From Hydrurus foetidus (Eukaryota), in NCBI GenBank assembly GCA_900617105.1, contig UYFQ01000008.1:1-53600 (forward strand): a stretch of DNA of 53,600 nucleotides, read 5' to 3'. Each line of letters opens with the position of its first letter. Positions within the stretch are counted from its first letter, which is position 1. Below, piece after piece: positions 6,301 through 27,123 of the stretch. The notes below the pieces were generated by a model, which saw only the letters and a program-made list of their open reading frames with translations, made no database searches and was not told where the DNA came from. The translations under genes were made by a program, and so were the position numbers.

Positions 6301-8054
6301 CAATTGTACCGATTATGAGTTGTCATTCCGCACGTGTGACATACGTCTGTTGTTCGGCTAATGCCTTCGTTGTCGGGACGACGTTTGGGAATGGTCTTGT
6401 ATGATGCGGATGGGCCAGTGGACGCGGATGTGGACAGTTGGGTGTCGGGATCTTCTTCAGGGGTAAGCTTGGTGGTGAAGGTATAGCTTAGTCCCCCCAT
6501 CTTGTCAGCGTCCGTAACTGTCTCGCGTGACGCTTGGAGACAGATGACAAGACGGGCGAGCATTTCCCTGATGTTGTCCTTTTTCCTTTCTTTGGCTGCC
6601 ACTTTGGTCAAGTCCATGAAATTTTCAGTGAACTTGTTGCCTGGTGGGAGCTTTTTGTAGAATATCTTGCAGATATCGTCCTGGCGATCACTATCGATGT
6701 TGTCATACTTGTTGTAGAACCCCAGGATAATGTCGCGGAACGCGGCGATGGAAGTGTGTTCCAGTGCACCGTTCAGCCAACTGAATTTGAACTGAAATCT
6801 CCTCAGTTTGAGGTCGAAGTCGTATGTGGATTGCGTACGTCTGTTAATGAAGTAGATTGTTTTAAGATCTTCTGCCATTTCTTTCAGAGTGAGCTCACCA
6901 TCCGGTAATTCCGGCCACGCCATACATTGCGCGGGGGTGTACCCGACGAGCTTCGTGTTTTGCAAGAGTCCATCACGAATGGTGTCGAGTGCCTCATCCT
7001 CTATCAGCGACTGCCAACCCGCGCTGAAACCAGGTCGGTGTGCCTGTTGGTAGAACAGGCGGGCGGACCCGTCCATGTCCTTCAACAGTACGTCCCTACC
7101 CATGTAGAACGCCTCCTTCATGTTAAAAAGGGAGGTCGTCATGTTTTGGTGACGCGGGATTTGGTTGCGTTGGGGTTGTTCGATGCCCGCATCTTCTGTT
7201 TTGCGTTTGCGTATAGGGTTCTCCACGGCCTTCGGTTTCGAAGCCGGGACCTTTTTCGCTGGTGCTTTAGCAGTGCGTTTGGCAGGTTTGGCCGTGCTGT
7301 TTGAGGGTGGTTGTTCTGGTGTGGGTTTGACTACTCGGGGGGAGCGTCTTTTCGCAGGTGGTTTGGCCTCTGCGGGCTTGTGGGTGTCGAGTTTGGCTGT
7401 GAACGGATCTTCGGAGTCGGACGGGACTTGACTGCCTTCATCCGATGAGAGTTCGATGTAGTTTTCATCGTCCTCGTCCTCGTCTTCCTCACCGGTTTCA
7501 TCCTCCCCGTCCTCCTTGTCTGATTCAGGGTGGGAGTCCGATGTCACTTTGCCGTCGGCTGTTTGATCGTCCTTATTGCCATCTCCCTCCTCGTCATTCT
7601 GTTGGGTCGGATTGCCACCTTGGTTTTCCTCCTTGTCGATGTTGTCGAGGTTGTCTGGTGATAAGGTGGCGGGTTCACTATGTGAAACGACCTCGCCCAT
7701 GATCGACATGAATTCGGAAAGACTTTGATCATCGTCTGCTTTTTCCTTTTCTTCTGTCTCGCCCTCCAATATGGAGAGACGTTTGCGCTCTGCCATGCGC
7801 GTGTTATGCCTCTCGGCTTGTTTTGCCTTGTGGGCTTTTTGTTCGTCTTCGATGCGGCTTTCAGTGTCTGTAGCCTTGATGGCTTTTTGACTGAGCGCCG
7901 CCGTCGAAGCGACGATATTTGCCTCGCGCCGCTTGGCGATTGCTTTGAGGCGTTCCTTTTCCCATTTGAGGGTTAAGCGTTCATCTTCTAGGAGCGAAGA
8001 GCTGAAGATGATTGGGTTAGAGCTCTGTCTCTTGTCTTTTTGGCTCTTTGTCAT
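3273..8054 (-). CDS. Gypsy-1 Gag-Pol single ORF (Gag, zinc knuckle, protease, RT, RNase H), truncated before integrase
   Basis: CHTCGMTTHNRYNC knuckle, IDTG protease, RFCIDYR/LPFG/YLDD RT motifs, TDASDYGIGG and TDHKNL RNase H motifs. Confidence 0.95.
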   Translation of the reverse strand: MTKSQKDKRQSSNPIIFSSSLLEDERLTLKWEKERLKAIAKRREANIVASTAALSQKAIKATDTESRIEDEQKAHKAKQAERHNTRMAERKRLSILEGETEEKEKADDDQSLSEFMSIMGEVVSHSEPATLSPDNLDNIDKEENQGGNPTQQNDEEGDGNKDDQTADGKVTSDSHPESDKEDGEDETGEEDEDEDDENYIELSSDEGSQVPSDSEDPFTAKLDTHKPAEAKPPAKRRSPRVVKPTPEQPPSNSTAKPAKRTAKAPAKKVPASKPKAVENPIRKRKTEDAGIEQPQRNQIPRHQNMTTSLFNMKEAFYMGRDVLLKDMDGSARLFYQQAHRPGFSAGWQSLIEDEALDTIRDGLLQNTKLVGYTPAQCMAWPELPDGELTLKEMAEDLKTIYFINRRTQSTYDFDLKLRRFQFKFSWLNGALEHTSIAAFRDIILGFYNKYDNIDSDRQDDICKIFYKKLPPGNKFTENFMDLTKVAAKERKKDNIREMLARLVICLQASRETVTDADKMGGLSYTFTTKLTPEEDPDTQLSTSASTGPSASYKTIPKRRPDNEGISRTTDVCHTCGMTTHNRYNCPLFMNPHCNNSHATWNASSIGQDFKRIGHSHFKPDIYVNNEKTHLTNYPGASTYVYPVDEVEMDMGPPKTQDPRRPNNNNNKNNNNKSNNRNNDRQSDDRNSERGNKPSGSHASSNYKGKSKLHLTATHVQKLDESRSTPTMQMLLSAVLPENIEDYLQVHISLPQTRSQTSGPTIATTVTPTVATATLAAKTTRATRKKRKTSPTATEISPTATETPMPAPPHPRRPQSTLQSEGIDALAQIDTGCQVGDVINRRVLRDLRGEPHLRPTDTPLWMCSGLNNQCIESTRVLDIIVSFKKNSFQHTFSLPVRIAEDSKVDLILGLQTIKTLNLVKLIPEFFQNPENIVTDKTMTHMSKMQRLDQSTNMVINQVDVPLLLEAESDTVTSITDPTIPPVITSLEGTKPSDADSRWQDDLVARGACTSKTCTPSCGCPTSLAAAAARLDSDEFILHSTVEAAVLLSPPRQNDLGVTTDRSPELATPTPSSKAPAQTRGLVAALLREREELPEVQPFGPEEIDYKSKDTFAPFQDNPTEDKMYLIDLIQIDGTPEQQAKIKAICVKHIKLFNNKLGPEPARIPPFGLPVRDPEWKVFKNRVAPRPTSIRKQVEIRKQVDSMLEQGIIVKSEASYYSQVTLAAKPDGSYRFCIDYRHLNDATESASWPIPNIKQMLARLGSQKADTFGVIDLTAGYHQAPLTLSTRVYTAFITFMGIYHFTRLPFGPKRAPSYFQEMMASIVLLGLIYQICEVYLDDIIVYGNGFEQFCERLEILFQRLEDKNISLKAAKLKLNVRIVEYVGKQISKEGITMSSKKIRGVTDFPMPRKTTELRSFLGLTNYFRDHVPNHSNVVAPLHKMIDHAAKKQSMLIWTDDAANSFQKIKDLIARSPLLYFIHDTAPITLMTDASDYGIGGYLYQEVDGEKQLVALVSKSLTKTQLKWSVIQKEAFAIYYCCTYLDALLRDRKFTILTDHKNLTFLEKDKNMKDRYPRHERKHKSIQITHISCEMAQLYS

Positions 8055-8872
8055 CGTGAATTTGGGTCGGGGCTTATTTGGATGGAACTGAGCGTCTTCG
8101 ACAGCGACGGAACTCGGACGCGGTGATTTAGGGAAATGAGGAGTAGGTTCGTCGAGGATGGAGACTGGTAGGTTAGGGGTGTGGCAGTAGAAGTCAGGGG
8201 GATTGGGTTACTTTCGTGCGATTTCGGGAGGAAATCGCGTCGGACGTTGGGGGCGTTGGACGGCTTCGTGGGCAACGAAGTTGGGCGTGCTCGTTGGAGC
8301 TTTCGTTTTAGAAACGATTTGTTTGGTTTCACTTGCTTGCAAGTTACTCTCTTTCGTCGGCCTTCGTTTTCTGAAGAGCTCGAGGAGATGTCGTTAAAAG
8401 TCGTCGGAACGAACTTCTAAACGAGGGCGTTCTGGAGGCTGTCGATTTAACAGAGCCTTTGTAGTGTCGTTAGACGTTGTTTTCACTTAAAAAAGTTACT
8501 CGCTTTTGTTTGGCACGACTGTTTGACGGTCGCGGCAAGATTTTTCTGTTGATTTTGGAAACTGGTCTCTGAAGGAGATCCTAGTTGGTTCCAAATACCG
8601 GTATTGTGGCCTTGCTAGGTCTCAGGGCAACGGGAGCGGAGGTCTGAGGGCGCGTGGACAAAGGGAAGATGCTGTGGGGCTAAAGCTGTGATAGCAATGT
8701 GGTTAGCTTACAGGTAAACACAGCAGATATCATGGCAATGAATCGTGTGGATCGGATCGTCCTCGATCCGAACCGGACGTACGCCTGTACCCGTACAGCC
8801 CGTACGGGTGTTCGGGTCACAACATCTCTTTCGTCAGAGAAGCGAACAAACCTTACCTGCGAGTGCAGTGGG

Positions 8873-9175
8873 TATTGTAGTTTGCATATTAATGTGCAGC
8901 CACCCCACCCTGCACTTGAACTCGAAACGGGAATTTACATCGTTTCTGATTATGGAACGTCGATTCTAGGCCGAAAATACCGAGATTTCGAGGATTGTTC
9001 TTCTGTTGAGGGGTAAAAAACTGCAGCCCTATATAAAAGCTGCATTCGGTAAAATGCAGCCCTGTATAGGGTAGAGGGGAAAATAAAAAAAGCCTATGGG
9101 CGAACGCAGGTAAAAAAGGCTTCAAGTACATGTCCAGGGTGGGGTGCTGCTGCAAGTTAATATGCAAAGCACAAT
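8873..9175. mobile_element. MITE-like element with ~50-bp imperfect inverted termini
   Basis: TATTGTAGTTTGCATATTAATGTGCAGCCACCCCACCCTG matches the reverse complement of ~9121-9175. The Harbinger element inserted at its right tip. Confidence 0.6.
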
Positions 9176-9468
9176 AGAGTGTTTGCGTTTTCGACTTTGA
9201 AACTTTTTACTTAAGAAATCACTCGATTCTGGACTCGATTCTTCATTTGCAGTTTTGAAATTCGAGTCGAAAGTCGGTTTTTGGACTATCGACTCGACAA
9301 TCGTTTTGAACTTTTTACTCGAAATCAAGACTAAATTGAACCCGGATTTGAGTCAAACTTCGCATGAAAATGAAAATTTGCATGAAGATGAAGATGATGT
9401 CTCAGTTATCTCATCCAATTGCAGCTATATAGTAGATACAACCAAGCACAGTTACAACGACTACGACG

Positions 9469-10752
9469 ATGGTCAATGGGAGACCGAATAGACGCAATCT
9501 GGCAATTAGACGCCGATGGCAAGAAAGAAATGCTCAGGATCGTATGAACCTGTCATATCTGAATAAAGTATGCAGATTTTTCCTGTTGACGGCGATCATG
9601 CTGCCTGCTGGAGAGATGCAGCGAGCGATGAGAGCAATATCATACATTGTTTTCATCAAAATTCTGTCGATTGACGAATGGAATAACCTACCAGCCGACA
9701 GAGTAAAGGCGACAGACGTTAAAATCGACAACTGCAGCGAAGAATCATGTTATGCACAGTTTCGCTTCCTGAAACGTGACTTGCGTCCTCTATTCATAGC
9801 GCCACGATTTCCTGCGCAGATTCTACGGGATAATAAGTCGGTTGTTCCTGGTGAAAAGGCCTTCCTCATGATGCTTCATCGAATGGCGTATCCGCGTAGA
9901 CTTATCATGGAGGAATTTTTTGGCTGAGAATGCTCAACGATTTCTCGTTGTTTCAGCCACGTCGTTGATTTCACGGACGAGCAACGTATTCATCTCCTAG
10001 TCGGTAATTTGGAGTTTTTCCTTCCTCGATTCCCTGAATATAATCGAGTAATCATTGCGCGCATTGCACAGTCGAACGATGATCTAGTTCCAGATCGGGA
10101 GTCCATGACAGCATTTTTTATCGACAGGACTAAGAGAGAAATTTGCCGACCGCTAGGTAACGACAATATGCAAAGAGCTGTCAATGATGGCCAGCTTAAA
10201 GAGCACAATCTCGGATTTCAAGGTACGTTGTGTTCTAAGCTTGCCATCGCAATAACAATTATAGATTGACATCAATTAGCTCTAATTATTGTGATAGGAT
10301 TGTCTGCGCCCGATGGACTTATTATGGATTTATTCGAACCATTTGCTGGTCGCCATCATGAAATGAGAATGGTTAGGGAGAGCGATATCATGCAGCTAGG
10401 TAATGAAAATCAATACTGCATGTATGCAGACAAAGGGTATGCTGACATGTCTCATTTGGTAGCTGCATACCATGGAGCAAATCTCACCCAACCACAGATA
10501 CAAATTAATAGTGTTCTAACGTTAGTAAGAGTGTCTGTCGAATGGTGTTTTGGAAAAATTAGTGAAAATAAAATGTACGTAAATTTCCCGCGTTACCAGC
10601 AATTGCAGCTGCAACCTGTTGGAAAATACTATCGATTAGCTGTTCTCTTGATGAATGCGAATACTTGCTTGTATGGTAGTCAGACAAGCATAAATTTCAA
10701 TCTAAAAGCTCCATCTCTTGGAGATAACTTTGACTGCGCGGACGACATTTAA
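9469..10752 (+). pseudogene. Harbinger-type DDE transposase (HARBI1/DDE_Tnp_4-like), disrupted
   Basis: Motifs FRF..DL, LHRMAYPRR, FIDRT..ICRP, PDGLI..FAGRHHE, YADKGY, RVSVEWCFG. In-frame TGA at 9925-9927; probable intron ~10224-10298. Confidence 0.88.
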
Positions 10753-10928
10753 GTGTAATATTTCCTAAGACAATATCGATCGATGAAAGCTTCTTCAGAT
10801 CGTCCTTGCCAATCTATCAGATTAGCATTCAAAAATGCTTGCTAAGAAATTACTGTGATATCGAAAACATCACTATAGTATGCTATAATTATCGTCGATA
10901 CTATTAGCTTGGCGGTATAAATAAAGTA

Positions 10929-12133
10929 TCACGCATCATTCTTTTGCTGCAACATCAATACTTGATGCTGAAGTTGCAAGTTTCTACCCTTCAGCTCTTC
11001 GAGAGCGATTGTTTCCTGGAATGTGAAATTGTTACCGTTGCTGTTGTTAGAAGAGTTATTGCTACTACTACTACTACTACTACCGCTGATGCTGTTGATA
11101 GAGGCTTCATCCTGGCGCTCAAAGAAGCGAGTGGCGGTAGCCATCATTGCGTTGAGTCCACTATCAAAAGACTTTGATGAAACGAGTGGTGTCACTGCAG
11201 GTGGCTTCTGAGCTGCACGTGCAACGGAGTTATGCGCTCTGCCACTGCCACGGCGGTCGTGCTTCGCTCTTTTAGGTTTCGACACGTCCTCTCTGTCAGT
11301 TTGCTCAGGTTGAGAGTCTGCTGCCTTTACATCGACAACAGCAGTGCTTCTCCTCTCCTCATCTTCGCTGTCACTTGTATCGGAGTCTCCTCTTGTTCCA
11401 CTGGCAAGATCCATGACTCTATCATTGCTTTGTTTAGCTGCTTCTACAAATTTGTCGGGAACGTGAGATAATATTAAGCGATGTATAGGAATTCAAGGGC
11501 GATTATTCATGTTGGAATTTACCTGATAGTTTACACTTCCCGTAAGCTGCGCAAGTGCTCAAAATCTTCACATTATGAGTCGCCATCTTATCCTCTTCTT
11601 GCTTTGCATTGTTCTTTAGGATAGCTGGTGTTAAGTCCTTTTTTATCTCTCGTCCACTGGGATCCCTTCTGCAAGGTCTGACCTCGTCTTTGCCAATAGT
11701 AACTAAGAGATCATAAGCTGTATTCAAATCTTCGTCGCTTACGATACCCTGGGAGGTCACTCCCACACTCATTTTAGTCATCATCTTTTTCCCGTCTTCT
11801 GCCGTAGAATTAATCTATATTGTATAGAATGATGCTTAACAACGAATCCAACATAACTCGCAGTTGAATCCAGTTATGTACCTGCTCTGCAAGTATGTTC
11901 TCTCACAGCGATTTCAAGATGCCTTACTTTTTGATGATTGTTGATGATCTAACAATCTTATCAGTATTGGTCGATTCAAAAACAACTTGATGTCCAAATA
12001 GCATCATGAGTGTGTTAATGAAGCTGACACTCTCGCCGTATGGTGCATTATGATATCGCTCTACTCGCTCTTGGTTTGAAAGAAGCTCGAGGAGGGCAAT
12101 CACTTGCTGCACGTCAAACATTTTGGACGCCAT
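10929..12133 (-). pseudogene. Harbinger accessory ORF2 (putative DNA-binding partner), multi-exon or degenerate
   Basis: Three minus-strand ORF pieces inside the TIRs, convergent on the transposase, matching the two-gene PIF/Harbinger layout. No domain clearly recognised. Confidence 0.55.
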
Positions 12134-12811
12134 GATATCAATACTGCAAGTAACGATGATCTATTTATTGCCATAGCTAACAACATTCTGTAAAAAAACT
12201 CTTGAAAAAATGTAACGCAAACACTTATTTTCAGGTGTTTTCATGGAACTTTCCAGTCCAGAATCGACTCAATTTTCCACTCATTTTTCAACGAAAAAAC
12301 GTTTCAAAATCGAAAACGCGAATACTCTAATAGCTTGGGAACGCAACCGTATAGCCGCATGGGCCACCTTTGTGTCCGCATTTTCCAACAGAGGGTGTGT
12401 GGTTTGTAGGGCTGGTGGCCGGGCCGAGCTCAGCTCGACCAGCTCGGCCAACTCGGCGAGCTCGGCCAGCTCGGCCAAAGTACTCAGTCAACTACGTCAA
12501 CTCTACACCTACACCTACACCCTACACCACTACCTCTTACCCACTACTAACTTCTGCATATCATTCCATTGCTGAAGGGCAGGTCATGATGACAGAAGAT
12601 GGACTTAGGTATCAGTGGATTCTGTGATGCCACTAATTTTCGCTCAGGTGCCGGAAATTTCATGTTGGACAGTGAGCAGTTCTGCAGTTCTTGCTTTCTT
12701 CTGAGAAATGGAGAAATTTTATGAACTGCATTCAAGACGGAACTCAAATTGCTGGAAGAGCCACGACAAATTGCGTGAAGCCCACTTGGGAGGGGGTTCC
12801 ATAGAACGCAT

Positions 12812-13445
12812 AAGTCTGGTGTATAGAACTGGGCAGCGATTCGACTCCTACTTGTTGCGACCCACTTAAATTTGTAGGAACTGATCAGCCTCAGCTCCGA
12901 GATGATTTGGTCAGTCGTTTTCAAAGTCTGGTGCGTTGAACTGAGCAGCGATTTGACTCGTATATTTGATGGCTCATGAAACATTACGTAAGGGCCACTT
13001 GTAAAACTCAAAGTCTGGTGTGCACAACGGGGCAGCGATTCAACTCCTTCTTGTTCCGACACTCGGGGTACTGCTGGCGATTGATTAGCAGCAGCTGCTA
13101 GATGACACAGTCAATGGCAATAATGGGCGCAATGTAGGACTTAAAGTCTTGTGCGCAGAACCCTAACCGATCCAACTCCTACATGTATTGACTCCGACTA
13201 TAGCTCAAGTGGGCGCGATGTTTAATTCAAAGTTTGGTGCGCAGAACTCGACAGCGATCCGACTCCTACATGTGTTGACTCCGACAGTTGCTGTTGTAGG
13301 CGCGATGTAAAATTCGAAGTCTGGTGCGCAGAACTCGACAGCGATCCGACTTCTACATTTGTTGAATCCGACAGTTGTCTAAATAGGCGCGATGTAAAAT
13401 TCGAAGTCTGGTGCGCCGAAATGGGCTGCGATTCGACTCATCCAT
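12812..13445. repeat. Degenerate ~87-bp minisatellite (about 7 units) inside the hAT
   Basis: Core AAGTCTGGTGCGCAGAACT..CAGCGATCCGACTCC at ~12812, 12923, 13010, 13143, 13229, 13316 and 13403. Confidence 0.85.
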
Positions 13446-13851
13446 TGTTTATTAATTCTTAAATACTATCGTTTTGTGTACAAGGGTGATGTATGAAATG
13501 TAAATAATGCGAGTTCCATGAATACTTTTTTCCGTATACGATTTTTTGACTGTTTTATCGTACTCCGAACGAAAAATCCTCAGTTTTGAATTTTGAATTC
13601 CTGTTGTCCGCAGCTTTCAATTCTCATCGCTCAACTCTCCACCTATCCTCACAAAACCAACCGCAGACAGAAACTGATAGGGTCGTACTGGAGACGAAAG
13701 GTCCTCAATCCTCAATTTTGAATTCCTGTTGACCGTCACTTTCAACTTAAATCTTTCGACTCTCAACTTTCAACCAATCTTCACATTATCGATCGCAGAC
13801 GGCAGAAGTATTCGTCGAGATTCCATCCATTTGTTGCCTTCAATTGCCCAA

Positions 13852-16466
13852 ATGTCCGTAAGTTTCAAATGCGAGTACTCTGCATGTACGGCGAATTTTT
13901 TCGAAGACTGCGATCTCTGTCACAAATGCTTCTGTGAGTATCAGATACCTGCCAGCAAGCACAAATGCGGAGAATCAAATGTGGCCGAATTGTCTTCCAT
14001 CGAGCCACTTGCTTCTCGGAGGTTCTCAGATCTTTCTTCTGACAGTTCTTTCATCGCAAGTCCACTTGAATTATCGTTTGCATCGGCATGGGAGACCCCC
14101 TCAACAAGTAGCTCAAGTAGCTCCAGTAGCTCAAGTAGCTCCAGTAGCTCGAGTAGCTCAAGTAGCTCAAGTAGTTCCCAAATTGTCGCCACACCAACGA
14201 ACGCACTCAGAGTTGCCCCAATCTTTTCACAAGTTCCTCAAAGCGTTAAAAGAAGGAACATATCAGGTGCAGCACCTCTGGAGACAGTTCCTGTGAGAGT
14301 GAAGTGGGGCGCCGGTGAAGAAAAGCGTTGCGCACTAACCACCGATGTAGAAGCATTCAAAGGCTCTACTTGGCTTTGGGATCACTTCAAGAGGTTTACC
14401 AAAGAGGACTCATACCTCCAGCAGCAGAACTACGAGGTGTCCTGCAACATCTGTAAAGAGGAGGCAAAAAATGATCCAACTATTCGATGGGTTGTATTCT
14501 ACGACAAATCAACGACCAAGTTGGAGAGACATTTAGCGAAATGCCACCCTTCTATTGTGAAAGAGTGGCAGAAAGATGTCGCGACGAAACTGATCAATAA
14601 TGGGGAGTCGAAAACGATGGTCGAATATTTGAAGACTGGCGCAAGAGATGATAACCTTTACAGATATTTGAAAATGTGTGTTATGAACTATCTTCCACTC
14701 GCACTTTGCTCGTACCCAGAATTCAACGGCGAGTCTTCCAAATTTATGACTCGTTTTTTGACTGTCGCACAATTCAATACTTACAATTTCATGCCAAACG
14801 GCATCTAACCGTATTTTTATGTTCCTTTAGATTACAGTGTAGGACTTAAGGGCGATTATGTTCCGCTAGATAGACATTACGTCACCAAGAAACTAACTCA
14901 AGTTGAGAATATCGTTATTGAAATACTCAAAAATATGCTAGCGGGAGAAAAATTCGCTTTGACATCGGACCATTGGACCAGCAATGCTAAGACGCATTTC
15001 ATAGCAGTCACATGTCACTTTATAAATAAAGACTGGGAACTTGTATCTATGACTTTTTGCAAGGAGCATCCAGGCAAGATTACAGCAGTCGAGTGCAAAA
15101 AGGAAATCAATAAAGCCCTTACGTTATACGACCTTGAAATGAACGATGCAGTTGCCCTGGTGACGGATACCGAGAGCACCATGACCTTACCGAGGCGATC
15201 ATCATTACTGTATAGCACATGTACTGGAGCTGACGACGGTAAGATATTGAATTCAACTGTTGCGCATGAATTGTGTTTCTGATGTTTGCCTAACTCCATA
15301 TCAACGCAGAAACAGTGCTTCGATGGACACTCGGATGCATGCAAACGTGCAAGACATTTGATTGGTACATTTTCAAACTCTACACAGCTCTCCGACCTTC
15401 TCAAGAAGGTTCAGCTGGTGAATAAGGTCGCAGTACCACTTAAATTTGTTCAGGATGTCTGCACAAGATGGTGGTCAACGTATCAGATGATACAACGGTT
15501 CTTGTCTTTACTGACGTACTTGGATATGCTAGTCGCCCGGGGTTCCTTGATGCAAAGGGAGATGTTAACCGTCGTAGAAATCAGCGAGCTCCGTCAGTTG
15601 GAAAGCATTCTACAACCATTCATGGCCGCACAAAGGGCATTAGAGGGTCAAAAGTATGTCTCTAACAGTCTAGTCGCCTACATCATTCACACAATAAGAG
15701 GTGGACTGGGGAATATCCTCGAAGCAACAGAAGTTGATAGTATAAAACGTCTTATCGATAAGTTGCTTGCAGATGTTACAAACGGTTTTAATATCTACTG
15801 TGGATCGGGCGATACTGGAACAATATTCACAGAGAATGAAACGTACGGTTCAAGACAGAGGCAGAAGGGGATTCCCAAGAAAACTTTAATGGCTTCCTTC
15901 CTAGATCCTAGAACGAAATATATGTCATGTATTCCATAGGCGGATGTGGAACAAATAGTCAATCACATTCGAGGAGAGGTGCTGAGGATAGCAAAAGAAT
16001 GTGACACTTCCGTAGATGAGATCCCGGAGGATGAAGCTAATAAAACGAATACTGATAATGAACTCTATGGGGGTCTCTTTTCTAACTTAAGGAACTTCAT
16101 CCGCAGACCAACTGTTCGTGTCCATTCCGAGGCTATCCTTCAAAGTAAGATAGATGCAGAGATTCAGAACTATATAGACAATATGGAGTCAATAGCTTTA
16201 TCCTGTAAAGTGGACGGTGTAAGGGTATTATAATCCACTAATTTGGTGGAAGAAAAAAGAAAAAACTTTGCCTCTTTTAAGCAGCTTAGCTAGACGTGTC
16301 TTGTGTATTCCTGCGACTTCGGCCTCGTCAGAGAGAGTTTTCTCAATGGCAGGTCTAACTATCACAAAACTTCGATCGTCACTTATCTCAGATAATGCAA
16401 GCGCCCTGATTTTTCTCCATGACACTTGAAATATTGCTGAAACCTGTCAAAATAAAAGAGCAGAAC
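13852..16466 (+). pseudogene. hAT transposase (AN1-like zinc finger, Ser tract, BED finger, DDE core, dimerisation domain), disrupted
   Basis: WDHF...CNIC...LERHLAKCH BED finger; TSDHWTS, VTDTES, CIAHVLEL, TRWWST, LDPR, PATSASSERVFS. Two introns, several stops and frameshifts. The last codons lie beyond Gypsy-2 at ~23049-23095. Confidence 0.93.
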
Positions 16467-16996
16467 TGTAGTCCGGATGGAGAAGAAGATGGGTAGAAGA
16501 GCGGGTTGTGCTTAGGTTACAGTCTGGCTAGAAGCTAGGTAACTTCTACGAGTAGGCTGCAGCTAGCTAGCTAGTCGTGGTAGGGCTGTATATGTACTGT
16601 AGGCGGAAGGATCGGGTGGATCGTGACAAGGTCCGGTACGGCCCGTAGGCCCGGTATACCCGGTACGACCACATTTCCCCCACTTATCTCTTTTTTTTGA
16701 AGAAATCTAATCTATGACGCGACCACCACGTTTAAAAAAACTAAATAACTAATAATAACTAAGAAAGGAAAAGAAAATTTAACGAAAACTAAAATGAAAA
16801 ATATAATAAGAATATTTACAAAATGTAAACTGTGGTGGGTCGGTCGACGAGAAAAGTGGTGCCAAGTACGTAAGTACGTGTGCCCGAGGCCTCGATACGT
16901 AATTATGTCAGATTTTTACTGACTAAAACCATAAAACCTCATCGAGGGAAAATTAGGAAAAATCTTCAAAAGATAATACGTTCGAGATCAGTCTTC

Positions 16997-19900
16997 TTAG
17001 ACTGATGCCTCAAGATTCTTGGGGATAAAATGTTTCATTTTATTGTCCCTCAAGTATTCATGGAGTGCTTCACAAAGCCGTAGGTTTTTCCACGGCTCCC
17101 ATGAATTATGAGTGTCATCATAATTAAGCCATTTGACTTTGAATGACATTGTCGTAGGCTTCTTTTTGTCACCTGAGTGACTAAGAACCTTTTCCACTAC
17201 AAATTCCATGTAGTCACGACGAGCAGTGTCAGCAGGTACATCGACCTCTGAATCATAATTAAAAATTTTTAAATTTTTAATATGTACACTTCGCTCTTTG
17301 TGTGTGACAAGGTTAGCGAGGATATACTCGGATCCTTTGTAGGAAATAACACGGTACGGGCCATGCCACGTAGTGTGTAACCGAGTAGGCGGTCGATCCG
17401 TGTAACGACATAGAACATATGTCCCTATAGGGAACACTGTCGCACACTTAGCTGATGCCGCGTGTTTAGCGTCTGCTGACACCAAAGCTTGAACAGCTGA
17501 CTCAAGGACCTTGTCCTGAACACTGATCAAGTCCTCAATGTATGTTGATCTAGAATGTGTATTCACACTTAAGTGTGGTGTTAAAATACCACGATTCAAG
17601 TCAAGCTTGTTTCCGAACAGTAAATGTGCGGGCGCAACTTTAGTGCGTCTATTAACTGAACTGTTAATGATGCGTTGCACGAATGGGATTGACTTGGCAT
17701 ATCCCTCAAGGGTCTGTTTATCAAAAACAAGACCTCTTAGGTGTCTATTTACCTCTTTGTTGACTCTCTCAACAATCGCATTTTCCTCTTTCGAGTATGC
17801 GAGGGTTAAATTATGTGGCGTACCACAAAGATCTAAAAAGTCTTTAATTAAATCGTTTGCGAAATGGGATCCTCGATCCGATCGTATCATGTTTGGCGAG
17901 CCGAAACGGCCAAAATGAGAGAGTAGGCAGTCGGCCGCTGATTTTGCGTCTGCATTTGCACACCAAAATAGTTCAGTCCAACGTGTGAACGTGTCGATAA
18001 TGACAAGGATATAACCTTTGTCTGGGAATGGACCGATATAGTCAACATTCAGCGTATCAAAGATAGCATAATTCGACGTTGCAAAGTGAGACGCATTGAT
18101 CTTAGGATCTTTTGCGCTCAACTTTTGACAACACGGACAGTTCTGTATGAACGTACGTACATGTTGTTTCATGTTTTTCCAAACTTGTTGTAGACTGAAC
18201 AACCGAGTAAGGGTACGATCTACACCGTTGTGACCAACAAACGCATTGTGGCACATTTGGATGTATTCTAACTGATCGTCTGACGCTGGGTCAATAGCTG
18301 TCAAAGCAGACACAGTGACCGACGACGACGAAGTTGGAAGTAATTCCAATTCCGTTGTTCGTAACGGTAATGCGATTTCTGTCAAGTTAGGACATAATCG
18401 CGACAATGCGTCGGCTAAGGCATTTGACGTGCCAGGTACGAAGACAACCGTAAAATGAAGTTCTTGCATAGCAATGAACCATCTTGCTACCATTGAGGTA
18501 GGGTTTTGTTTCATATACGTGATATTCAAATGATCAGTATAGATTGTGAATGTACGATCTCTGATTAGGTAATCGAGTTGTGTACAACAGTAGAATATAG
18601 CATACGCTTCTTTCTGTATAGTTGACCACCTTATTTGTGTTGGTGTCAATGATTTGCTTATAAAAGCTATTGGTTGCCAAATGGTATCAACCACTTGGAA
18701 AAGGACACCGCCGATTCCAAAATCAGACGCGTCTGTATATAATCGGATATCCAATTTATTGTCATCAATGAAGTACATTAATGGACAACGAGATATCGCG
18801 ATCTGTGTATCGTGAAAGCTGTTGGTACTTGTTTGAGTCCATACAACGGCCGAACGTTTCGGTGCAGAATGATCTATCATATCTTGCATTGGTTTAACCA
18901 AAGTCGAATGCATAGGTACAAACTGTCGAAAATAATTCGCCAATCCTAAGAATGATCTTAACATAGTTAAGTTCTTAGGTATAGAAAAGTTTAACACTGT
19001 TTCTATTTTCTCTTTTGACATGGATAAACCATCTTTGTCAACCACTCTGCCAACGTATTCAATACGAGGTAGACCAAAGCGGCATTTCTTTGCCTTGAGT
19101 CGAAGACCCTTAAGTCTAAATCTTTCAAAGACTTTATTCAAGTTCTTAAGAAACTCTGCTTCACCCTTGCCATATACTATGCAATCGTCGAGATACATCT
19201 CACAACAATGATAGATAAGGCCATAGAGGACCGCCGTTACCATCTGCTCTTGAAAGTAAGAGGGGGCACGACACGGACCAAAGGGTAGTCTCGTGAACTG
19301 AAAAACCCCCGCAAAGCATATAAACGCTGTGAATATGCGGTGTGCGGGGTGTAACGGTGCCTGATGGTAACCCGCGGTTAAATCCATCACACCAAAGATA
19401 TCCGGTTTTTTATTACCGATCCTCTCAAAAAGATGTTTGATATTCGGCAGGGGAAAAGAGGCGGGAGTCAGGCACTTATTAAGTGGCCGGTAATCGATGC
19501 AGGTTCGAAATTTACCGGGTGACTTAGTTACTATTACAGGATGACTGTAATAAGCAGCATCTGACCGCTCTATAACCCCCGACGCAAGCATCTCATCGAG
19601 ATTCTCCTTAAGAGCAACCTCCTTAGTCGATGACTGGGGACGTACCGGCGTACGGTTTTCGTCTTTTTCCCACAACTCAAGTGGGATGTTAATCTCAAAA
19701 GGTTTGAGTGACGCTGGTTTCTCAGCTAACTGATCACTAAAGATGTCTGAATATTCAGAACAGAGCTCTCGGAGCTTCCTCTGAAAGCTTTCATCTCCCT
19801 CAAAGGTAATCTCGTTGAGGAAATCCTCTGGCCCCTTGGGCAAGTCATCTTGACTAGGTTTCTCAGCTAAGAAGGGTGCGAACGTGTCTATCTTGCCATC

Positions 19901-21088
19901 GTCAATCTCGTCAACTGAGAGTGCGACACCACTGGGCCATAAAGGCTCAGTGACATAGTCGGGGGTATCAGAATCCCCAAAGGTATGTGTAAGGGTGGGA
20001 ATCTGGTCGCCACCTAGGTGCGGTGTATCACCCGTACGTTTTGCGAGAATAGGAGTGACACTATTCAGTCGCTCACAACTTACATCACCACAGGAATTTT
20101 GGGTCGCGACTCCCTCAATATCCTTTTGGGGATCGTTACATGTCGACATTGAATGGACACAGGAGACGTTGCTCTTCGAAGAAGATTGACCAAGCAAAAC
20201 GCTCTTCTTATATGGGTACTCTTGTACACCATATGTAACCCTCTTTTTAGAGGCAGGTTTACCGCCTGGATATTTCAACTTGTCATAATGAGGCGTTATA
20301 GACTCGACTTCAGCTGTATCTGGTTCGGCACCCAACGCTATCATTTGACGCGTATACTTATGTTGATACATGGGATCAAGTTTCAACAAAGCTTCCTTCT
20401 TATCGAAGTCGCGTTTGCGCGCATCGCTTTTCTTTTTGTTCTCCGCGCTAAGTTCTGGCGATATGCCGAAAGCAAACGGAGTCAAAGACCAAAAATCATA
20501 CTTATTTACCGTCTTACGGCTAAACAGAATTTCAATTTCGGTTTTTCTATTAACCCTCATGGGTAAGCTGATGCTCTGGCATTCGCCATCGTAAGAATGA
20601 AAAAGGATTTTTAAATCGCAAATTTCGTTATTTACATAACATTGACCATCGAGGCCGCTACAAACAGTGATAGCTGTAGGAGCGGGGTAACAAAGGTGAG
20701 TGGCATTTAATTTTTCTAACATAGTAAAAGAAATAAAATCCTCCGAGTAATTCGCGGTGTCCAGCACGGCTCTTCCAACGGCACGCAGCTCGCTTGCTGG
20801 GCCAGTCCTATCCTTATCCTGCACGATAACAGTTACGTTGAGGTGATGAGAAGGAAGGACAGATGGATTATGCAAAAATTCTTCACGAATAGTTACATGT
20901 GGCTGTTCTTCAACATGACTATCCATCAGATTATGGGAATCATTGTCAAAGACAGCAGCCACGTCATCAGAATAAAGGTTCTTACCTTGATCCTGACCTG
21001 AACTTGAGGAGGAGGGAGGGTTGTTTCCTGTGGGGGTTGTATTTGTTTCCCCTGCCACCGGATCCACGACCCTGGTTTTGGTTTGCAT
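16997..21088 (-). CDS. Gypsy-2 Pol (protease, RT, RNase H, integrase, chromodomain)
   Basis: LDTA protease; YLDD; TDASDFGIGG; H-x5-H...CPCC; DYIGP/SDRG/VERVN integrase triad; WHGPY; C-terminal chromodomain. Confidence 0.97.
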   Translation of the reverse strand: MQTKTRVVDPVAGETNTTPTGNNPPSSSSSGQDQGKNLYSDDVAAVFDNDSHNLMDSHVEEQPHVTIREEFLHNPSVLPSHHLNVTVIVQDKDRTGPASELRAVGRAVLDTANYSEDFISFTMLEKLNATHLCYPAPTAITVCSGLDGQCYVNNEICDLKILFHSYDGECQSISLPMRVNRKTEIEILFSRKTVNKYDFWSLTPFAFGISPELSAENKKKSDARKRDFDKKEALLKLDPMYQHKYTRQMIALGAEPDTAEVESITPHYDKLKYPGGKPASKKRVTYGVQEYPYKKSVLLGQSSSKSNVSCVHSMSTCNDPQKDIEGVATQNSCGDVSCERLNSVTPILAKRTGDTPHLGGDQIPTLTHTFGDSDTPDYVTEPLWPSGVALSVDEIDDGKIDTFAPFLAEKPSQDDLPKGPEDFLNEITFEGDESFQRKLRELCSEYSDIFSDQLAEKPASLKPFEINIPLELWEKDENRTPVRPQSSTKEVALKENLDEMLASGVIERSDAAYYSHPVIVTKSPGKFRTCIDYRPLNKCLTPASFPLPNIKHLFERIGNKKPDIFGVMDLTAGYHQAPLHPAHRIFTAFICFAGVFQFTRLPFGPCRAPSYFQEQMVTAVLYGLIYHCCEMYLDDCIVYGKGEAEFLKNLNKVFERFRLKGLRLKAKKCRFGLPRIEYVGRVVDKDGLSMSKEKIETVLNFSIPKNLTMLRSFLGLANYFRQFVPMHSTLVKPMQDMIDHSAPKRSAVVWTQTSTNSFHDTQIAISRCPLMYFIDDNKLDIRLYTDASDFGIGGVLFQVVDTIWQPIAFISKSLTPTQIRWSTIQKEAYAIFYCCTQLDYLIRDRTFTIYTDHLNITYMKQNPTSMVARWFIAMQELHFTVVFVPGTSNALADALSRLCPNLTEIALPLRTTELELLPTSSSSVTVSALTAIDPASDDQLEYIQMCHNAFVGHNGVDRTLTRLFSLQQVWKNMKQHVRTFIQNCPCCQKLSAKDPKINASHFATSNYAIFDTLNVDYIGPFPDKGYILVIIDTFTRWTELFWCANADAKSAADCLLSHFGRFGSPNMIRSDRGSHFANDLIKDFLDLCGTPHNLTLAYSKEENAIVERVNKEVNRHLRGLVFDKQTLEGYAKSIPFVQRIINSSVNRRTKVAPAHLLFGNKLDLNRGILTPHLSVNTHSRSTYIEDLISVQDKVLESAVQALVSADAKHAASAKCATVFPIGTYVLCRYTDRPPTRLHTTWHGPYRVISYKGSEYILANLVTHKERSVHIKNLKIFNYDSEVDVPADTARRDYMEFVVEKVLSHSGDKKKPTTMSFKVKWLNYDDTHNSWEPWKNLRLCEALHEYLRDNKMKHFIPKNLEASV

Positions 21089-22280
21089 GGGGTTGTATCC
21101 TCCCTCTGCTTACCTCTACCCCCTCCATGCCATGGTAACCACCATGGTTCACCCTGGAGGCCTTGTCCCTGGCTCACCAGAGGCAGAACACCATGGCTGT
21201 TTTGGGGCGCTTGTTGTCACATCTTAGCACTGGGAGTACGAGATGTTGCCATTCTGCAACCCTACCGCTGCCCAAGCCCCCAATGTAGCAGCCAGTCTGT
21301 CTCTGGATGGGAGTGATGTGCGACTTACGGCACGCTAGAAGTTCACGAACGGCACTTCCGTCGACGCACGGACAGCGAGTCCGTGCTGAGTCGGAATGTA
21401 CGAGCCTGTTGTACGCACAGTCGCTGTAAGTGACTTAGACGTCCCGGATGGAGTAGGTGAGGGTGCCTTAACACTTGCTCTGCTTGTCTCTTTTTACCAA
21501 CCTCAGGCGGAATAGCCGATGAAGGGAACGAGTACACTACCTCCGGGTTGCCGTAGCTTTGATGAGGTTCGTCATCGACCTAGCCTCAGCCAGAACCTGA
21601 CCAATGCGTAGCATAGTCTTCAACCATGTCCCCGTGTTGGGTGGTGAGGTGTCAGCCGCTTTCGCTCTCAGGTAGTCTTGTTGAATTTGACTACCCTTAG
21701 CTAGGCGCTTCTCCAAGATCTGAATAAGCTCAGCATGCTGAGTCATAGTCAGAGGGCCCTTGGACCTCTCATAGTTGCTCACAAGTTCATTGTAACGAAT
21801 GAATGTGGCATTCTCATGATCGTGATTAGCGATCTGGTAGTGGAAGGGAATCTGGCTGAAACTCTCTGCCAAAGTACACTCCCCCAAACCGTTTGGGCAG
21901 AAGTACTTCACTACTAGAGTGGCTACCTGAGTCACCGTTAATATGGTGAACCAATCATGACGTTGTCGACGGTCAATGATGTTGAATTCAGGGTCGACTA
22001 AGATTTTGAAGTTCAATAGTTCGATTGCCTGCTTCTGCATACAGTCCGTCAACTTCATGTTGGGATTGCGTTGAGCCTGTTCGTAGAACTCAATGGCATC
22101 AGCTTCATCAATGAAGTTGTGTCTGAGCACGAAGACCTCACTCTGGAGTTGCATCGTCAGCGAGCTGTTACCAAACAATGAGCTGTTGATTGGAATAGTC
22201 TCATTGAGGGCAGCCAACGCTGCGAGACGAGCAATCTCCTCCTCATCAGGAGGTGGTGGAGATGGAGGTGCGGCGGACAT
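21089..22280 (-). pseudogene. Gypsy-2 gag, frameshifted
   Basis: Homologous to Gypsy-3 gag (FYEQAQR vs FFEQAQR; YSFPSSAIPP vs NSFPSTAIPP). Frameshift at ~21558 and a corrupted zinc-knuckle region. Confidence 0.8.
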
Positions 22281-23110
22281 ATCGCTACTAGATATGTATC
22301 TCGCTTAAACACAGCAGAGATCAATCCCCCGTTGTCAAAAAAAATTTGCAAGGGGTTTGCCTTGTTCGCTAACGGGTACTGTTTCGTCAGTAACAACGCG
22401 TTAGAGAATTCTAACCAACTCTTGAACTGAAAAGTCCAATGGCGTAAGAGCCAAATTTTGAGTGGTAGAAAAATTGGGTACCTTTAAAGGTATATGCTGC
22501 TGCTTTCCAGCGACAAGAAGACGTCTCTTGACTAATCTTATGTCAGCGGTGATGAATCCGTGATTCAATCGACCGTCAGAGCAGGTCTTTAATGAATCTC
22601 GGGAAGGATCTTTCGACTTCGACCGGAAACTTAAAGGATGGAAGAGCCCAAGCTTAGGGATTCCAAGAAAGCAGGTATGCTGACTTTCTCTAACTTAAAC
22701 TAAAGTTCTCTGAGCTCAAAGCTGCAAGAGAAGTCGGCCGTGGCGGACTATAGAACGCTCAGAGGTCTTATCTAAAAGTTCTGGACAAGTAGATGGACTG
22801 AGAGGTAGTAGAAGAAAGATTGGACGAATAGCGCTATTGTAGTCCGGATGGAGAAGAAGATGGGTAGAAGAGCGGGTTGTGCTTAGGTTACAGTCTGGCT
22901 AGAAGCTAGGTAACTTCTACGAGTAGGCTGCAGCTAGCTAGCTAGTCGTGGTAGGGCTGTATATGTACTGTAGGCGGAAGGATCGGGTGGATCGTGACAA
23001 GGTCCGGTACGGCCCGTAGGCCCGGTATACCCGGTACGACCACAGAACGCACAGCAAAAGGGGTCGTAAAACATGATGAAAAGAGATTGTTTTAGACTTT
23101 ATATTAATAC

Positions 23111-25246
23111 TGTGGTAGTTCCGGGTCCAAGGTCCCGATCCTACGGGATAGTACTACGGTAAACTACTCACTGTACACTACAGTCTGTTGTATCGTCGTA
23201 GCCACTTACAGCCTCCACGTAGAAGTTCACCCTAGTTTCTAGCTTTCCTACTGTAACTAACTACCGCTTCTAGACATCTCCTCCTACCTTCCCATCCCGA
23301 GCCACAATAGCGCTATTCCCGCTCATCATTCTTCGCTTCTTTCTCTAAAATCTACTCGGCCAATCTTTAGATAGACTTCCAACGGAGTACGACATACTCC
23401 ACGACTTCCGAGTAGTTGTTTTCTCGCTGAGCCCACAGCTCCGAGAACTTAGCTTTAAGTTAACGGAAGCGGGCATATTCTTCCCAATTTGGAACCTTTG
23501 AAAGGTGTTTCCAAAAAGTTTGTTTTGGTCGAAGTCGCGAGAGCCTTCCCAACTCGAAATTAAGGAGTTCCCCGCTTGCAATTTGGATACCGATTCCATT
23601 GCTAGAGACATCAAATTAGCCTAAGGACGTCTTTTGGTCGACAGGAAGTTCTTCCTTCATCCTCAAGAGGACCCAAAATTTTCACCACTCAAAATTCGGC
23701 TCTCGTGCTATAGAATTTTTCTCGACAAGAGTTGGTTGAAATCCAATTATTCGCTGTTACTTGCGTAAAGTACTCAATAAGCGAACGAGGCGAAGCTCTC
23801 GCATTATTTTTTGACGAAGAACGCTCGTCCTTGCTTCGATATAACTCGATTTATATCTACTGCTCATCCTTCGATAAGAGATGGCAGAGAATTCTCTCGA
23901 TCCTGAGCCCAGCCCAAATCCAAGGGATAATGAGTCTGATAATGAGGAAGTAGTTGATGAGGAAGGAAACATCCTTAACCTCTCACAAAACTCATAATCG
24001 TCAAATATGGGTTTCCCACAGACGCTACAGATCCAGCGAGAGATATTCATCCTGTGGTAGTTCCGGGTCTAAGGTCCCGATTACCGGATAGCACTCCGCA
24101 AGATGCTGAGAGCTTCTTTGAGCAAGCTCAACGGATGCCTCACTTACGCATTAATTAATGCATGCAACGTCAAGCATTCGATTTGCTTCATGTTAAATTC
24201 ATGACTGATCAGGCGACGCTGTCAGTAGTTACCAACGAGCAGAGGCTTAATTGGCAAAACCTTCTCCCGATAGAAAGCGTTGCCACGTTGATAATGCAAT
24301 ACTTTTGCAAAAACAAGAAAGGGGATCATACCTTAGCAGAACTGTTTGCTAAGGTCCCGTTCCACTATTCTCTTTCCTCTGATGAGGAAGAGTTAGTAAC
24401 GAACATGGCGTACAAAGAGATCGCTACCGATCACGAGCGTGTCCGTCGTATCACTGCATCACAGCATGTCTAGTTGATTTCGATTCTGAGAAACGACTCC
24501 CTCGAGGGAGTCGCATCCAAGCGGATTACGTAATTCACAAATCGAGGGACAACGAGTCCCCTAAGATGTGGGAAATCGCTATGATGCGCATTATCGCAGT
24601 CGTTACTGCGGCACGTGAGACAATCCACATGAGCAGGAGTAATGGCAACCCTGACATTGTCAACTCGTTTCCGAGTACAGCAATACCTCCTCCCCGCTCT
24701 ACTAAAAAGCGGGCGAGCACACTGGCTATAAGTGAGGTAGATATCCCAAGTGGTAGTAGCAACCTAGCGGTACGATCTACACCGATGAACCGTTAGTGTC
24801 CGATGCCCGGGTTTGTCGCTCATGCGGGAACCCTGCACATATTCTAAACGAGTATCCAGTCTTGTACTATTCCGACACCAACAACAATCACGGCTGTAAC
24901 TGGCCTGATTCGTTTGTAGGTAAGGCATGGCTGGCACAGGGTGAAGTTACGTGACAGGAGAGACTCATCTTACCTGTGTACGAAACCAGGGAAAGATACC
25001 ACCCTGCGGGTTCGCCACCGTACTTGATGTGCAACAGCAAAAAGCTGCAAGGCAACCAGGGGAAAACAACCCAAACCAGGGGAACCAAAACCAAGGTTTC
25101 GGAAACCGCGGAAATCAAAACCAAGGTAACCAGAACCAAGGTTATGGTAATCAGAACTACCAAAACCGCAACCAAGGAAACCCCGGCCCTGGGGGTAACC
25201 AAGGTGGTGGTAGAGGGTACCAGGGGAAGACTAGGGGTTAGCCACA
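23111..25246 (+). mobile_element. Gypsy-3: deleted relative of Gypsy-2 (5' LTR, degenerate gag, last ~7 bp of the 3' LTR)
   Basis: 5' LTR 23111-23306 (TGTGG...GAGCCACA). gag remnants with CRSCGNPAH and NQG repeats. AGCCACA at 25240-25246 is followed by ATAC, matching ATAC at 23107-23110 (4-bp TSD). Confidence 0.88.
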
Positions 25247-25364
25247 ATACTAACATTTTTTGTTATTTCGATGAAGAAGATACACTTCTTGTCTCAGTGG
25301 GAAGTCCTCGGTGTGATCTCAAAATACGTCTTTCGGTCATACATTGTACCATGATGCCCAGGCT

Positions 25365-25535
25365 AGGCCAGAACGAAATGGCTCGGCCAGATCCGAATGA
25401 CTCGGCCAGACCCAAATGACTCGGCCAGACCCAAATGACTCGGCCAGACCGAACTAGCTCGGCCAGGCCGAAATGGCTCGGCCAGCTTCGGCCAAGAAAT
25501 GTGGCCGAGTTGCGCCTCGCCCGTGGCCGAGCTGA
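25365..25535. repeat. hAT subterminal repeats (CTCGGCCAG-containing ~19-bp units)
   Basis: Tandem CTCGGCCAGACCCAAATGA-like units; the same motif occurs at 12415-12480 and 26185-26220. Confidence 0.85.
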
Positions 25536-25546
25536 TCATGAACTAA

Positions 25547-26181
25547 GGCCACAATTCACCGTCACGTGATAACGCGATACGTGATAGTATCACGTGCAGA
25601 TTATCACGTAAAACTTTGATTCGCCGGACACGCGAAGTCATTTCCAACGTGATAGTATCGCGGATCCTCCAATATTCAACGCGAAAAACAGATTTATCGC
25701 GTCCTCGATTTTATCAAAACGCGATACATTATAGGACTACGTTGCCACCTTGGAAACCATACAATTTATTCAGACAGATGGCAGACGAGGCATCAATTCG
25801 AATGAATAGGGCAACTCGAGGACTGGGTGAAGCCTACATACTACTACTGTTGCTAGCATGGAACGATGTAGTTACGAACGGTTCGAAGCAGAGCACCGCC
25901 CAGATTGAGCAATCTATTAAAGTGAGAGCAGCAGATTGGGTCAAGGAGCTGTTTGATAGTTACAAATACATTCCAATCAAAGATGCCACGGCTGAGTCTA
26001 TCATCTGGTAGATAGCTTGAAACGGTCATCTTGGGTAAAAAATTCTTAAAAATTTGAATATTTGAATTATCACGTGCAGATTATCACGAAAAACGGTGAA
26101 ACGTGGAAAAGTTCGTATACGTGATAATCTGCACTTGATACTATCGCGTATCGCGTTATCACGTGACGGTGAATTGTGGCC
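25547..26181. mobile_element. Non-autonomous PIF/Harbinger (Tourist-like) MITE
   Basis: ~64-bp TIRs starting GGCCACAATTCACCGTCACGTGATAACGCGATACG; TAA TSD at 25544-25546 and 26182-26184. Confidence 0.93.
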
Positions 26182-26382
26182 TAAGCTCGGCCTGGCCGAG
26201 GAGGGTCGGCAAGCTCGGCCACCACCCCTAGTGGTTTGTCGTTCAATTCGGGGGGCGGGGAAAAATTTTCCATTGGATCTCTTCTTCAATAAGAAAGTCA
26301 CATGTCCCTTCTCACATTGCAACCATCCTGCTATCCCTGCTGCGGAAATGTTCAGAGATTATAACACTTAGAACTAGACATC

Positions 26383-27123
26383 ATGATGCTCAATTCGGTA
26401 GTTCTTGTCGCAATCATTGCCGCTGCGTCGGCATTCATGCCAACTAATGTCCTGAAATCATCAAGGTACCTTTTCTTGAGATCTCTTTGTCATCTTCAAC
26501 ACAAATTTTAATCGTTACGACACCGCAACTCCGGTCCCTTTCCACTCATATTTAGAATGACACTGGCCATGAAATCGAATGTAAGTTATCTCATCATGTC
26601 GTCTGATTCTTGTTTGAATTTCTGGATCCCAACAGACTTGTAATGTTAAGCAATCATGAACATGTTCTGTTGTAGGATCTCCAAAAGGCCATCGCCGCAT
26701 CAATGATCGGCGCCTCTCTTTTCCTTGGAGGATCAGTCAAGGCTGAGGTCGACTACCAAGGCATTGCCTACCTCGGAGGCGGAGACAAGATCGATCTGAA
26801 CAACGCCAACATCCGCGCTTACCTTAAAGTCCCCGGATTCTACCCCTCCATCGCCTCCAAAATCGTTGTAAACGGCCCTTTCAAGACTGTTGCCGACGTC
26901 TACAACATCCCTGGACTCACATCCGTTCAGAAGGACATCATCAAGAAGTCTGAATCCAGATTTCTTGCCCTTGACGTAAAGCCTGAATACGAGATTGACA
27001 AGATCAACAACGGGTAAGCTCTAGACAATTGCATTCCACCACCTCATCGCAACCCCAACAATCGCGTCTGCGACACTACTCCTAATCAAATCCCTCTCTT
27101 TTTCTTGCAGCCTTTACCGTTAA
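26383..27123 (+). CDS. psbU: Photosystem II 12-kDa extrinsic protein PsbU precursor (4 exons: 26383-26465, 26556-26580, 26676-27013, 27111-27123)
   Basis: KIDLNNANIRAY..PGFYPSIA.KIV.NGP...DKINNGLYR; signal peptide ending ASA-F, transit peptide, lumenal VKA cleavage site; GT-AG introns. Confidence 0.95.

Follow-up and report, generated by a model that had tools for sequence, protein, structure and literature searches.

A palindrome in place of the tRNA primer site at the long terminal repeat edge of chromodomain Ty3/gypsy elements, with a possible role in trans-priming

We analyzed a 53,600-nt stretch of contig UYFQ01000008.1 (assembly GCA_900617105.1) from Hydrurus foetidus, called the window here, and found three Ty3/gypsy-type elements in it: G1 and G2 on the minus strand and G3 on the plus strand. 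In each of them, a perfect 12-bp palindrome lies at the edge of the 5' long terminal repeat (LTR), at the place of the tRNA primer-binding site (PBS). The elements are laid out as follows.

2736-8821, minus strand: whole G1 element, with two identical LTRs and a 4-bp target-site duplication
8605-8821, minus strand: G1 5' LTR, 217 nt, TG...CA, 217/217 identical to the 3' LTR
2732-2735 and 8822-8825: G1 target-site duplication ACAT
8594-8605, minus strand: putative G1 palindromic primer site (last A of the LTR, 10-nt core and base +11)
8604-8595, minus strand: G1 10-nt core, +1 to +10
3273-8207, minus strand: G1 gag-pol open reading frame (ORF), stop to stop, 1644 amino acids (Pfam RVT_1, RT_RNaseH)
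3158-3358, minus strand: G1 chromodomain remnant in another frame, past an internal deletion (Pfam Chromo, E=1.6e-9)
2953-2972, minus strand: G1 polypurine tract region
2736-2952, minus strand: G1 3' LTR
16467-23044, minus strand: whole G2 element, with two identical LTRs and a 4-bp target-site duplication
22838-23044, minus strand: G2 5' LTR, 207 nt, 207/207 identical to the 3' LTR
16463-16466 and 23045-23048: G2 target-site duplication GAAC
22827-22838, minus strand: putative G2 palindromic primer site
21537-22304, minus strand: G2 gag-like ORF, assigned by position and likeness to G1 and G3, no Pfam match
16997-21109, minus strand: G2 pol ORF with reverse transcriptase (RT), RNase H, integrase and chromodomain (Pfam)
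16674-16693, minus strand: G2 polypurine tract region
16467-16673, minus strand: G2 3' LTR
23111-23306, plus strand: G3 5' LTR, 196 nt, of a decayed sister family of G2
23306-23317, plus strand: putative G3 palindromic primer site
24102-24646, plus strand: broken G3 gag remnant (tblastn with G2 Gag: 37% over 161 amino acids, E=1e-32)

The TG...CA LTRs, target-site duplications, polypurine tracts and the order RT-RNase H-integrase (complete in G2) place these elements in Ty3/gypsy (Metaviridae), and the Pfam Chromo matches in G2 and G1, a domain expected at the integrase C-terminus, mark them as chromoviruses by domain content. The closest solved structure to the G2 RT is Ty3 RT (E=1.9e-62), and G1 and G2 are 54% identical over RT-RNase H. 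Both target-site duplications are 4 bp long; among plant LTR elements 5 bp is common. G1 has no counterpart to G2 Pol residues 870-1307 and is without the integrase core (3273-3358), yet its LTRs are identical. Because of these two features, G1 is likely a recently inserted non-autonomous copy mobilized in trans.

G3 is a decayed 5' fragment in which neither pol nor a 3' LTR was seen. Its LTR start at 23111 is supported by contigs whose loose ends there are a purine tract, and its LTR end was set from the CA and the alignment with G2. Just ahead of its gag remnant, the start of the G3 LTR together with its flank (23101-23139) recurs as a 39-nt stretch at 92% identity (24043-24081). All sequencing runs compared were assembled contigs. 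Thousands of contigs per run align at 22300-24300, indicating that the G2/G3 group is a large and diverse repeat family in this organism. For 22800-22870 the contigs list zero letter differences, a stretch so short that this has no bearing on conservation.

The palindrome is AATACCGGTATT in G1 (8594-8605) and AATAGCGCTATT in both G2 (22827-22838) and G3 (23306-23317), and all three copies overlap the last A of the 5' LTR, as the first-pass annotation of this DNA had described. In the element sense, the last base of the LTR in G1 and G2 is the first A of the palindrome, and these two LTR ends are known without recourse to the palindrome because they are fixed by identical LTR pairs and 4-bp target duplications. 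A 12-bp palindrome starting at one fixed base has a chance of 2.8e-4; the whole window, LTR-edge sites included, contains 28 perfect palindromes of at least 12 bp and 86 of at least 10 bp.

The earlier view that three divergent elements share the motif held for G1, which is separate, but not for G2 and G3, which are sister families (leader 72% over 147 nt, LTR 71% over 117 nt, Gag remnant 37%), G3 being a fragment. The window therefore holds two independent palindrome sequences that are one base pair apart. Their difference, CCGG in G1 against GCGC in G2 and G3, is indeed compensated (+4/+7), as had been proposed, but it amounts to a single pair. The covariation evidence from the window alone is thin, and related loci supply it. 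The first-pass annotation was also right that no TGG stands beside the LTR of G1, G2 or G3 (in G1 a TGG comes only at +12, past the palindrome), and that their LTRs hold no complement of the motif: the longest Watson-Crick match is 4-5 nt, equal to shuffles. Its statement that the site is neither of the tRNA 3'-end type nor of the Tf1 type is supported.

Related loci (L numbers below) were fetched with a pol alignment, blind to the palindrome, as the best 78 of 573 matches confirmed among the metagenome contigs scanned; scans of viral contigs gave one 320-nt locus only. After removal of four loci with short matches, 74 of the 78 were placed with G1 and G2 on a quick IQ-TREE tree, which split into a clade of 51 rows containing G1 and G2 and an outgroup. 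Fourteen clade loci whose junction lies off the contig were excluded, ten by eye (L006, L015, L017, L019, L022, L023, L025, L029, L037, L057) and the rest by ORF coordinates (L031, L048, L049, L051). The count set comprised the 42 clade elements with an LTR or leader on the contig (G1-G3 and 39 loci).

We applied a fixed rule, CA or TA followed immediately by a perfect palindrome of at least 10 nt. Such a site was found in 38 of the 42 clade elements, against 4.8 expected from dinucleotide shuffles, and in 32 against 2.4 expected when only CA was allowed. The four misses are L026, L030 and L047, which are 3' LTRs followed by unrelated sequence, and L046. The palindromes first listed for L019, L025, L057 and L058 and one in L040 were rejected as chance occurrences in or beside coding sequence.

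A curated set of 37 sites combined 35 rule matches at the likely LTR end with the sites of L018 and L032, whose 8-nt cores occupy that position while the rule matched elsewhere. The LTR terminus is CA in 30 of them and apparently TA in 7 (L008, L010-L013, L044, L045). In 24 of 35 LTRs, TGTAA occurs 55-108 nt before the proposed end, supporting the register of that end. This motif, often followed by CTAA, is seen in the LTRs of G1-G3 and, for example, L005, L009, L013 and L016, and may be a signal for polyadenylation. Many LTRs contain numerous short GTAC/CGTACG palindromes within their first 60 nt (8799-8808 and 23010-23040 in the window; L009, L014, L020, L021, L026). Several contigs (L004, L007, L011, L012, L020, L032, L039, L045 and others) are circular or have a 3' LTR that runs into the primer site; from their sequence, they may be one-LTR circles, tandem copies or collapsed assemblies.

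In the outgroup, a TGG lies within a few bases of the CA in 10 of 24 loci, these sites being chosen by eye and the LTR end being proven by two copies in L066 alone. A chromodomain was detected by tblastn in 34/37 palindrome elements and 0/10 TGG elements. The two kinds of element fall on the two sides of one branch, with a Shimodaira-Hasegawa-like approximate likelihood ratio test value of 100 on the quick tree. No TGG was found within 0-4 nt of the 5' LTR in any of the 37 curated sites. The palindromic site at the LTR edge is real and clade-wide.

To describe what the clade conserves, we compared the cores. The 37 sites contain 24 different cores, all self-complementary through the center; of the 16 self-complementary 4-mers that a center could have, 12 occur. 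Core length is 8, 10, 12, 14 or 16 nt with the 5' edge fixed at the LTR end throughout; the final A of the LTR lies within the palindrome in 33/37 sites, and 27/37 cores start with ATA. The sister pairs L016 (ATATTAATAT) and L020 (ATATCGATAT), and L040 (ATAAGCTTAT) and L041 (ATAATATTAT), differ by paired changes. When the 28 ten-nt cores were mapped on the tree, at least 2, 1, 4, 10 and 11 changes were needed at the five pairs (at least 28 in total), all of them paired. Among the 22 twelve-mers (18 distinct), pairing holds in 98.1% of cells, and in 31 cells both sides have changed; none of 500 shuffles reached either value, and slid registers gave 37-50%. Because curation had used palindromicity, a blind test was run on 100 positions chosen by LTR-end likeness alone. 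We found 3-bp arms in 18 of them, and all 18 also have a self-complementary center, arms alone occurring in none. Thus the conservation and covariation for which the first-pass annotation had looked to relatives are present at all five core pairs, and the data support self-complementarity as what this clade conserves.

On this basis we propose, with a probability of roughly 0.55, that the self-complementary site replaces the tRNA PBS and that a partner RNA, cut after +10, primes minus-strand DNA in trans. Two genomic RNAs would pair antiparallel through the palindrome. One of them would be cut after base +10, probably by the element's own RNase H inside the RNA duplex, by analogy with Tf1, for which an 11-nt RNA primer and an RNase H cut between bases 11 and 12 are described in the accessible text of PMC7175516. 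The new 3' end would then prime minus-strand DNA on the uncut partner. The geometry is given by the sequence: +1 lies opposite +10 of the partner RNA, so a primer whose 3' end is at +10 would be held in 11 bp of duplex, and synthesis would begin by copying the last A of the LTR. The uncut RNA would remain a continuous template, so the minus-strand DNA would have a copy of the site at its end. The primer would in turn be copied into plus-strand strong-stop DNA, which would carry the reverse complement of the site. At the second strand transfer, annealing of the two copies requires a fully palindromic site, which explains the palindromic center. The same duplex would double as the genome dimer link.

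Several observations weigh against this proposal. The nick, the primer and the dimer are all deduced from the sequence of assembled contigs. The 37 sites were curated partly by palindromicity, and LTR ends were fixed independently only in G1, G2, L032 (by the contig repeat) and L005, L016, L020 and L024 (by alignment with the flanked 3' LTR of L026). Kinship among the sequences inflates the shuffle statistics. In L046, no palindromic site was found and there is no LTR start upstream, and L043, where the placement of the site is not clear, was treated as uncertain and kept out of the curated set. In 4/37 sites (L011-L013, L028) the A of the LTR does not pair with +11, and several cores consist of A/T alone and pair weakly (-6.8 kcal/mol). 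Cleavage of both strands of a symmetric duplex would be a dead end, so that the model needs an extra asymmetry. L008 and L010, which belong to one family, are a real exception, since their LTRs hold a 9-nt complement of their own site and may be primed in the Tf1 manner.

We consider it unlikely that the palindrome is a dimerization or packaging signal only, like Ty3 PAL6 or HIV-1 DIS, with the primer being something else. Short 5' palindromes drive dimer formation in Ty3, according to the available part of PMC11381356, and our covariation and energies would fit a dimer site equally well. However, the site is fixed at the LTR edge at any core length, where priming must start, while Ty3 PAL6 is placed at 391-396, in gag, by the same source. 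Furthermore, we found no other primer site adjoining the LTR in the 37 curated sites.

A cis fold-back, in which the RNA is cut at +10 and a small hairpin primes, is a still more doubtful explanation. It accounts for the LTR-edge anchoring, and for the palindromic center as needed only for the second strand transfer; since that transfer demands a palindromic center in any own-primer model, the center alone proves neither a dimer nor trans over cis priming. The 8-nt flanks pair slightly better than swapped ones (-7.7 vs -5.6 kcal/mol; better in 20/32 elements; Wilcoxon p=0.004, the elements not being independent), which could stabilize the hairpin before the cut. This pairing often bulges the CAC of the LTR, which may, as a weak indication, mark the cut site. 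However, closing the core as a hairpin with a 3-bp stem and 4-nt loop costs energy in 36/37 cases (median +3.6 kcal/mol), whereas the RNA duplex in trans ranges from -5.3 to -14.0 kcal/mol, so the pairing of two RNAs suggested in the first-pass annotation gains from this comparison. A 3-bp stem is also too short a primer-template for reverse transcriptases, and a second, uncut RNA would still be required as template. Energy and primer length favor trans over cis priming.

Self-priming of the Tf1 type, in which the transcript's 5' end would be the primer and the palindrome incidental, is very improbable for the clade. These are chromodomain elements, and the ATA start of most cores resembles the Tf1 site. 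The 9-nt complement in L008 (LTR 5704-5960) and L010 (LTR 5805-6060) lies about 105 nt from the LTR start and is possibly a Tf1-like state or relic, and L034 has an AT-rich 8-nt complement. Outside these three elements, the longest complement in the LTR is 3-7 nt (34/37), like shuffles; three of the 37 LTRs were covered only in part.

A host tRNA half or other small RNA, as used by Copia and Ty5-type elements, would be a scarcely credible primer. Anticodon-loop priming is known (PMC10886601, in its accessible text) and the anticodon arm is partly self-complementary. However, 24 palindromic cores, with sisters switching by paired changes, would each need a matching small RNA. As far as the available text of PMC6317226 goes, half-tRNA primers in plants were found only in Copia lineages. 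No tRNA genes were found in the window, to which this search was confined.

Although palindromes are typical of DNA-level sites for dimeric proteins (a transcription factor, Gag or integrase) and 10-bp palindromes are common in the window, such a site or chance is most improbable, because every core pair varies (at the two central ones, each of the four Watson-Crick pairs occurs), leaving no conserved sequence for a protein to read, and because 38 sites against 4.8 expected exclude chance.

The remainder of the window contains other repeats and genes. At 12812-15939, an array of 87-nt tandem repeats precedes disrupted ORFs that contain a BED zinc finger (13681-14808), and the region is likely a decayed DNA transposon. 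A 649-bp element resembling a miniature inverted-repeat transposable element, with 71-nt terminal inverted repeats (94%), occupies 25540-26188, and six 19-nt tandem repeats lie beside it (25363-25495). An inverted pair of 34 nt, 12.6 kb apart (28732-28765 and 41325-41358), possibly represents the ends of DNA transposons. We also identified a psbU gene with introns (26380-27123), whose ASAF-type plastid presequence points to a photosynthetic stramenopile as host, and an ORF with a dual-specificity phosphatase domain (41749-44091).

If trans-priming operates as proposed, genome dimerization would be tied directly to priming and the element would be freed from host tRNAs. The model specifies the element's own RNA as primer and +10/+11 as the place of the cut, and it predicts opposite outcomes for particular mutants. 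We regard the chances as evenly balanced for a broader reading, a third general start of LTR reverse transcription beside tRNA and Tf1 priming, in which the site is its own primer from the partner genome, dimerization and priming are one event, and the arrangement had separate origins in Gypsy and Copia. Within this broader reading, the primer would be copied into plus-strand DNA, so both palindrome halves would change in one round, which would explain the fast turnover. A large protist clade, with 1073 related proteins, escapes LTR annotation tools that require a tRNA site. We found no report of a Gypsy LTR-edge palindrome or of a dimer-priming model in the open literature, a scope that leaves aside subscription papers, Repbase Reports and supplements.

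Ty1 PAL and HIV-1 DIS are dimerization palindromes separate from the tRNA primer site. Like these and Ty3 PAL6 (PMC11381356), the site in our clade is a short self-complementary 5' sequence able to join genomic RNAs, but the known palindromes lie elsewhere in elements that also have a normal tRNA site, whereas the clade palindrome replaces the tRNA site. The likeness to Tf1/Sushi elements (Tf1, Tf2, Tj1, Tcn1) lies in a tRNA-independent, LTR-adjacent site with an ATA start, an 11-bp primer duplex and a chromodomain Ty3/gypsy background, as far as the accessible portions of PMC7175516, PMC4600332, PMC11042837 and PMC6317226 describe them. The Tf1 site starts with ATAAC, and about half of Tf1 cDNAs carry a DNA copy of the site (PMC11042837, same portion). 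The difference is that in Tf1 the initial 11 nt of the transcript serve as primer and have their complement in the LTR, whereas the G1-G3 site is its own complement.

Dictyostelid Skipper (PMC5006619), SM-Tcn1 (PMC2864245) and Cryptococcus Tcn2-5 (PMC7175516) are chromodomain Gypsy elements which, like our clade, lack both a tRNA site and a complement of the Tf1 type in the available text. These sources describe a polypyrimidine tract in Skipper and a T-rich stretch in SM-Tcn1, whereas our clade has the palindrome; Tcn2-5 might conceivably carry one too. Two candidate precedents were rejected: the accessible text of Kojima 2024 (PMC10886601) mentions no palindrome, and that on bivalve terminal-repeat retrotransposons in miniature (PMC6934838) reports no clear PBS but describes no LTR-edge palindrome.

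The closest known system is the Conserved Hairpin Site (CHSeq1/CHSeq2) of the fungal GalEa Ty1/copia elements (Donnart et al. 2017, PMC5445492; the comparison covers its accessible text). There, a palindrome after the 5' LTR, including the final A of the LTR, stands in place of the PBS. GalEa and our clade share the lack of a tRNA site, the paired-substitution variants and the lack of an LTR complement. However, our clade is Ty3/gypsy with a chromodomain and RT before integrase, whereas GalEa is Ty1/copia with integrase before RT, and the hosts differ. The palindrome is mostly 12 bp (10-18) with 24 cores here and 10 bp with two forms in 85% of families there. In GalEa, an inverted copy, CHSeq2, lies 12-41 bp downstream; G1-G3 have no such partner, the best complement within 100 nt downstream being 4 nt, and the contiguous downstream complement in the curated sites is at most 5 nt in 34/37, while the three others, all AT-rich, reach 6 nt and may have a mismatched copy. 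Its authors proposed a PBS role without a model and compared the site with the retroviral dimer site; priming across the dimer is not proposed in that text. This precedent makes the feature known in kind and less novel and leaves the novelty of the mechanism unaffected. For GalEa, Skipper, SM-Tcn1 and Tcn2-5, which have neither a tRNA site nor a complement of the Tf1 type, our clade offers a sharp test of how reverse transcription begins, and, if the proposal is true, the likeness to GalEa would represent convergence between Gypsy and Copia.

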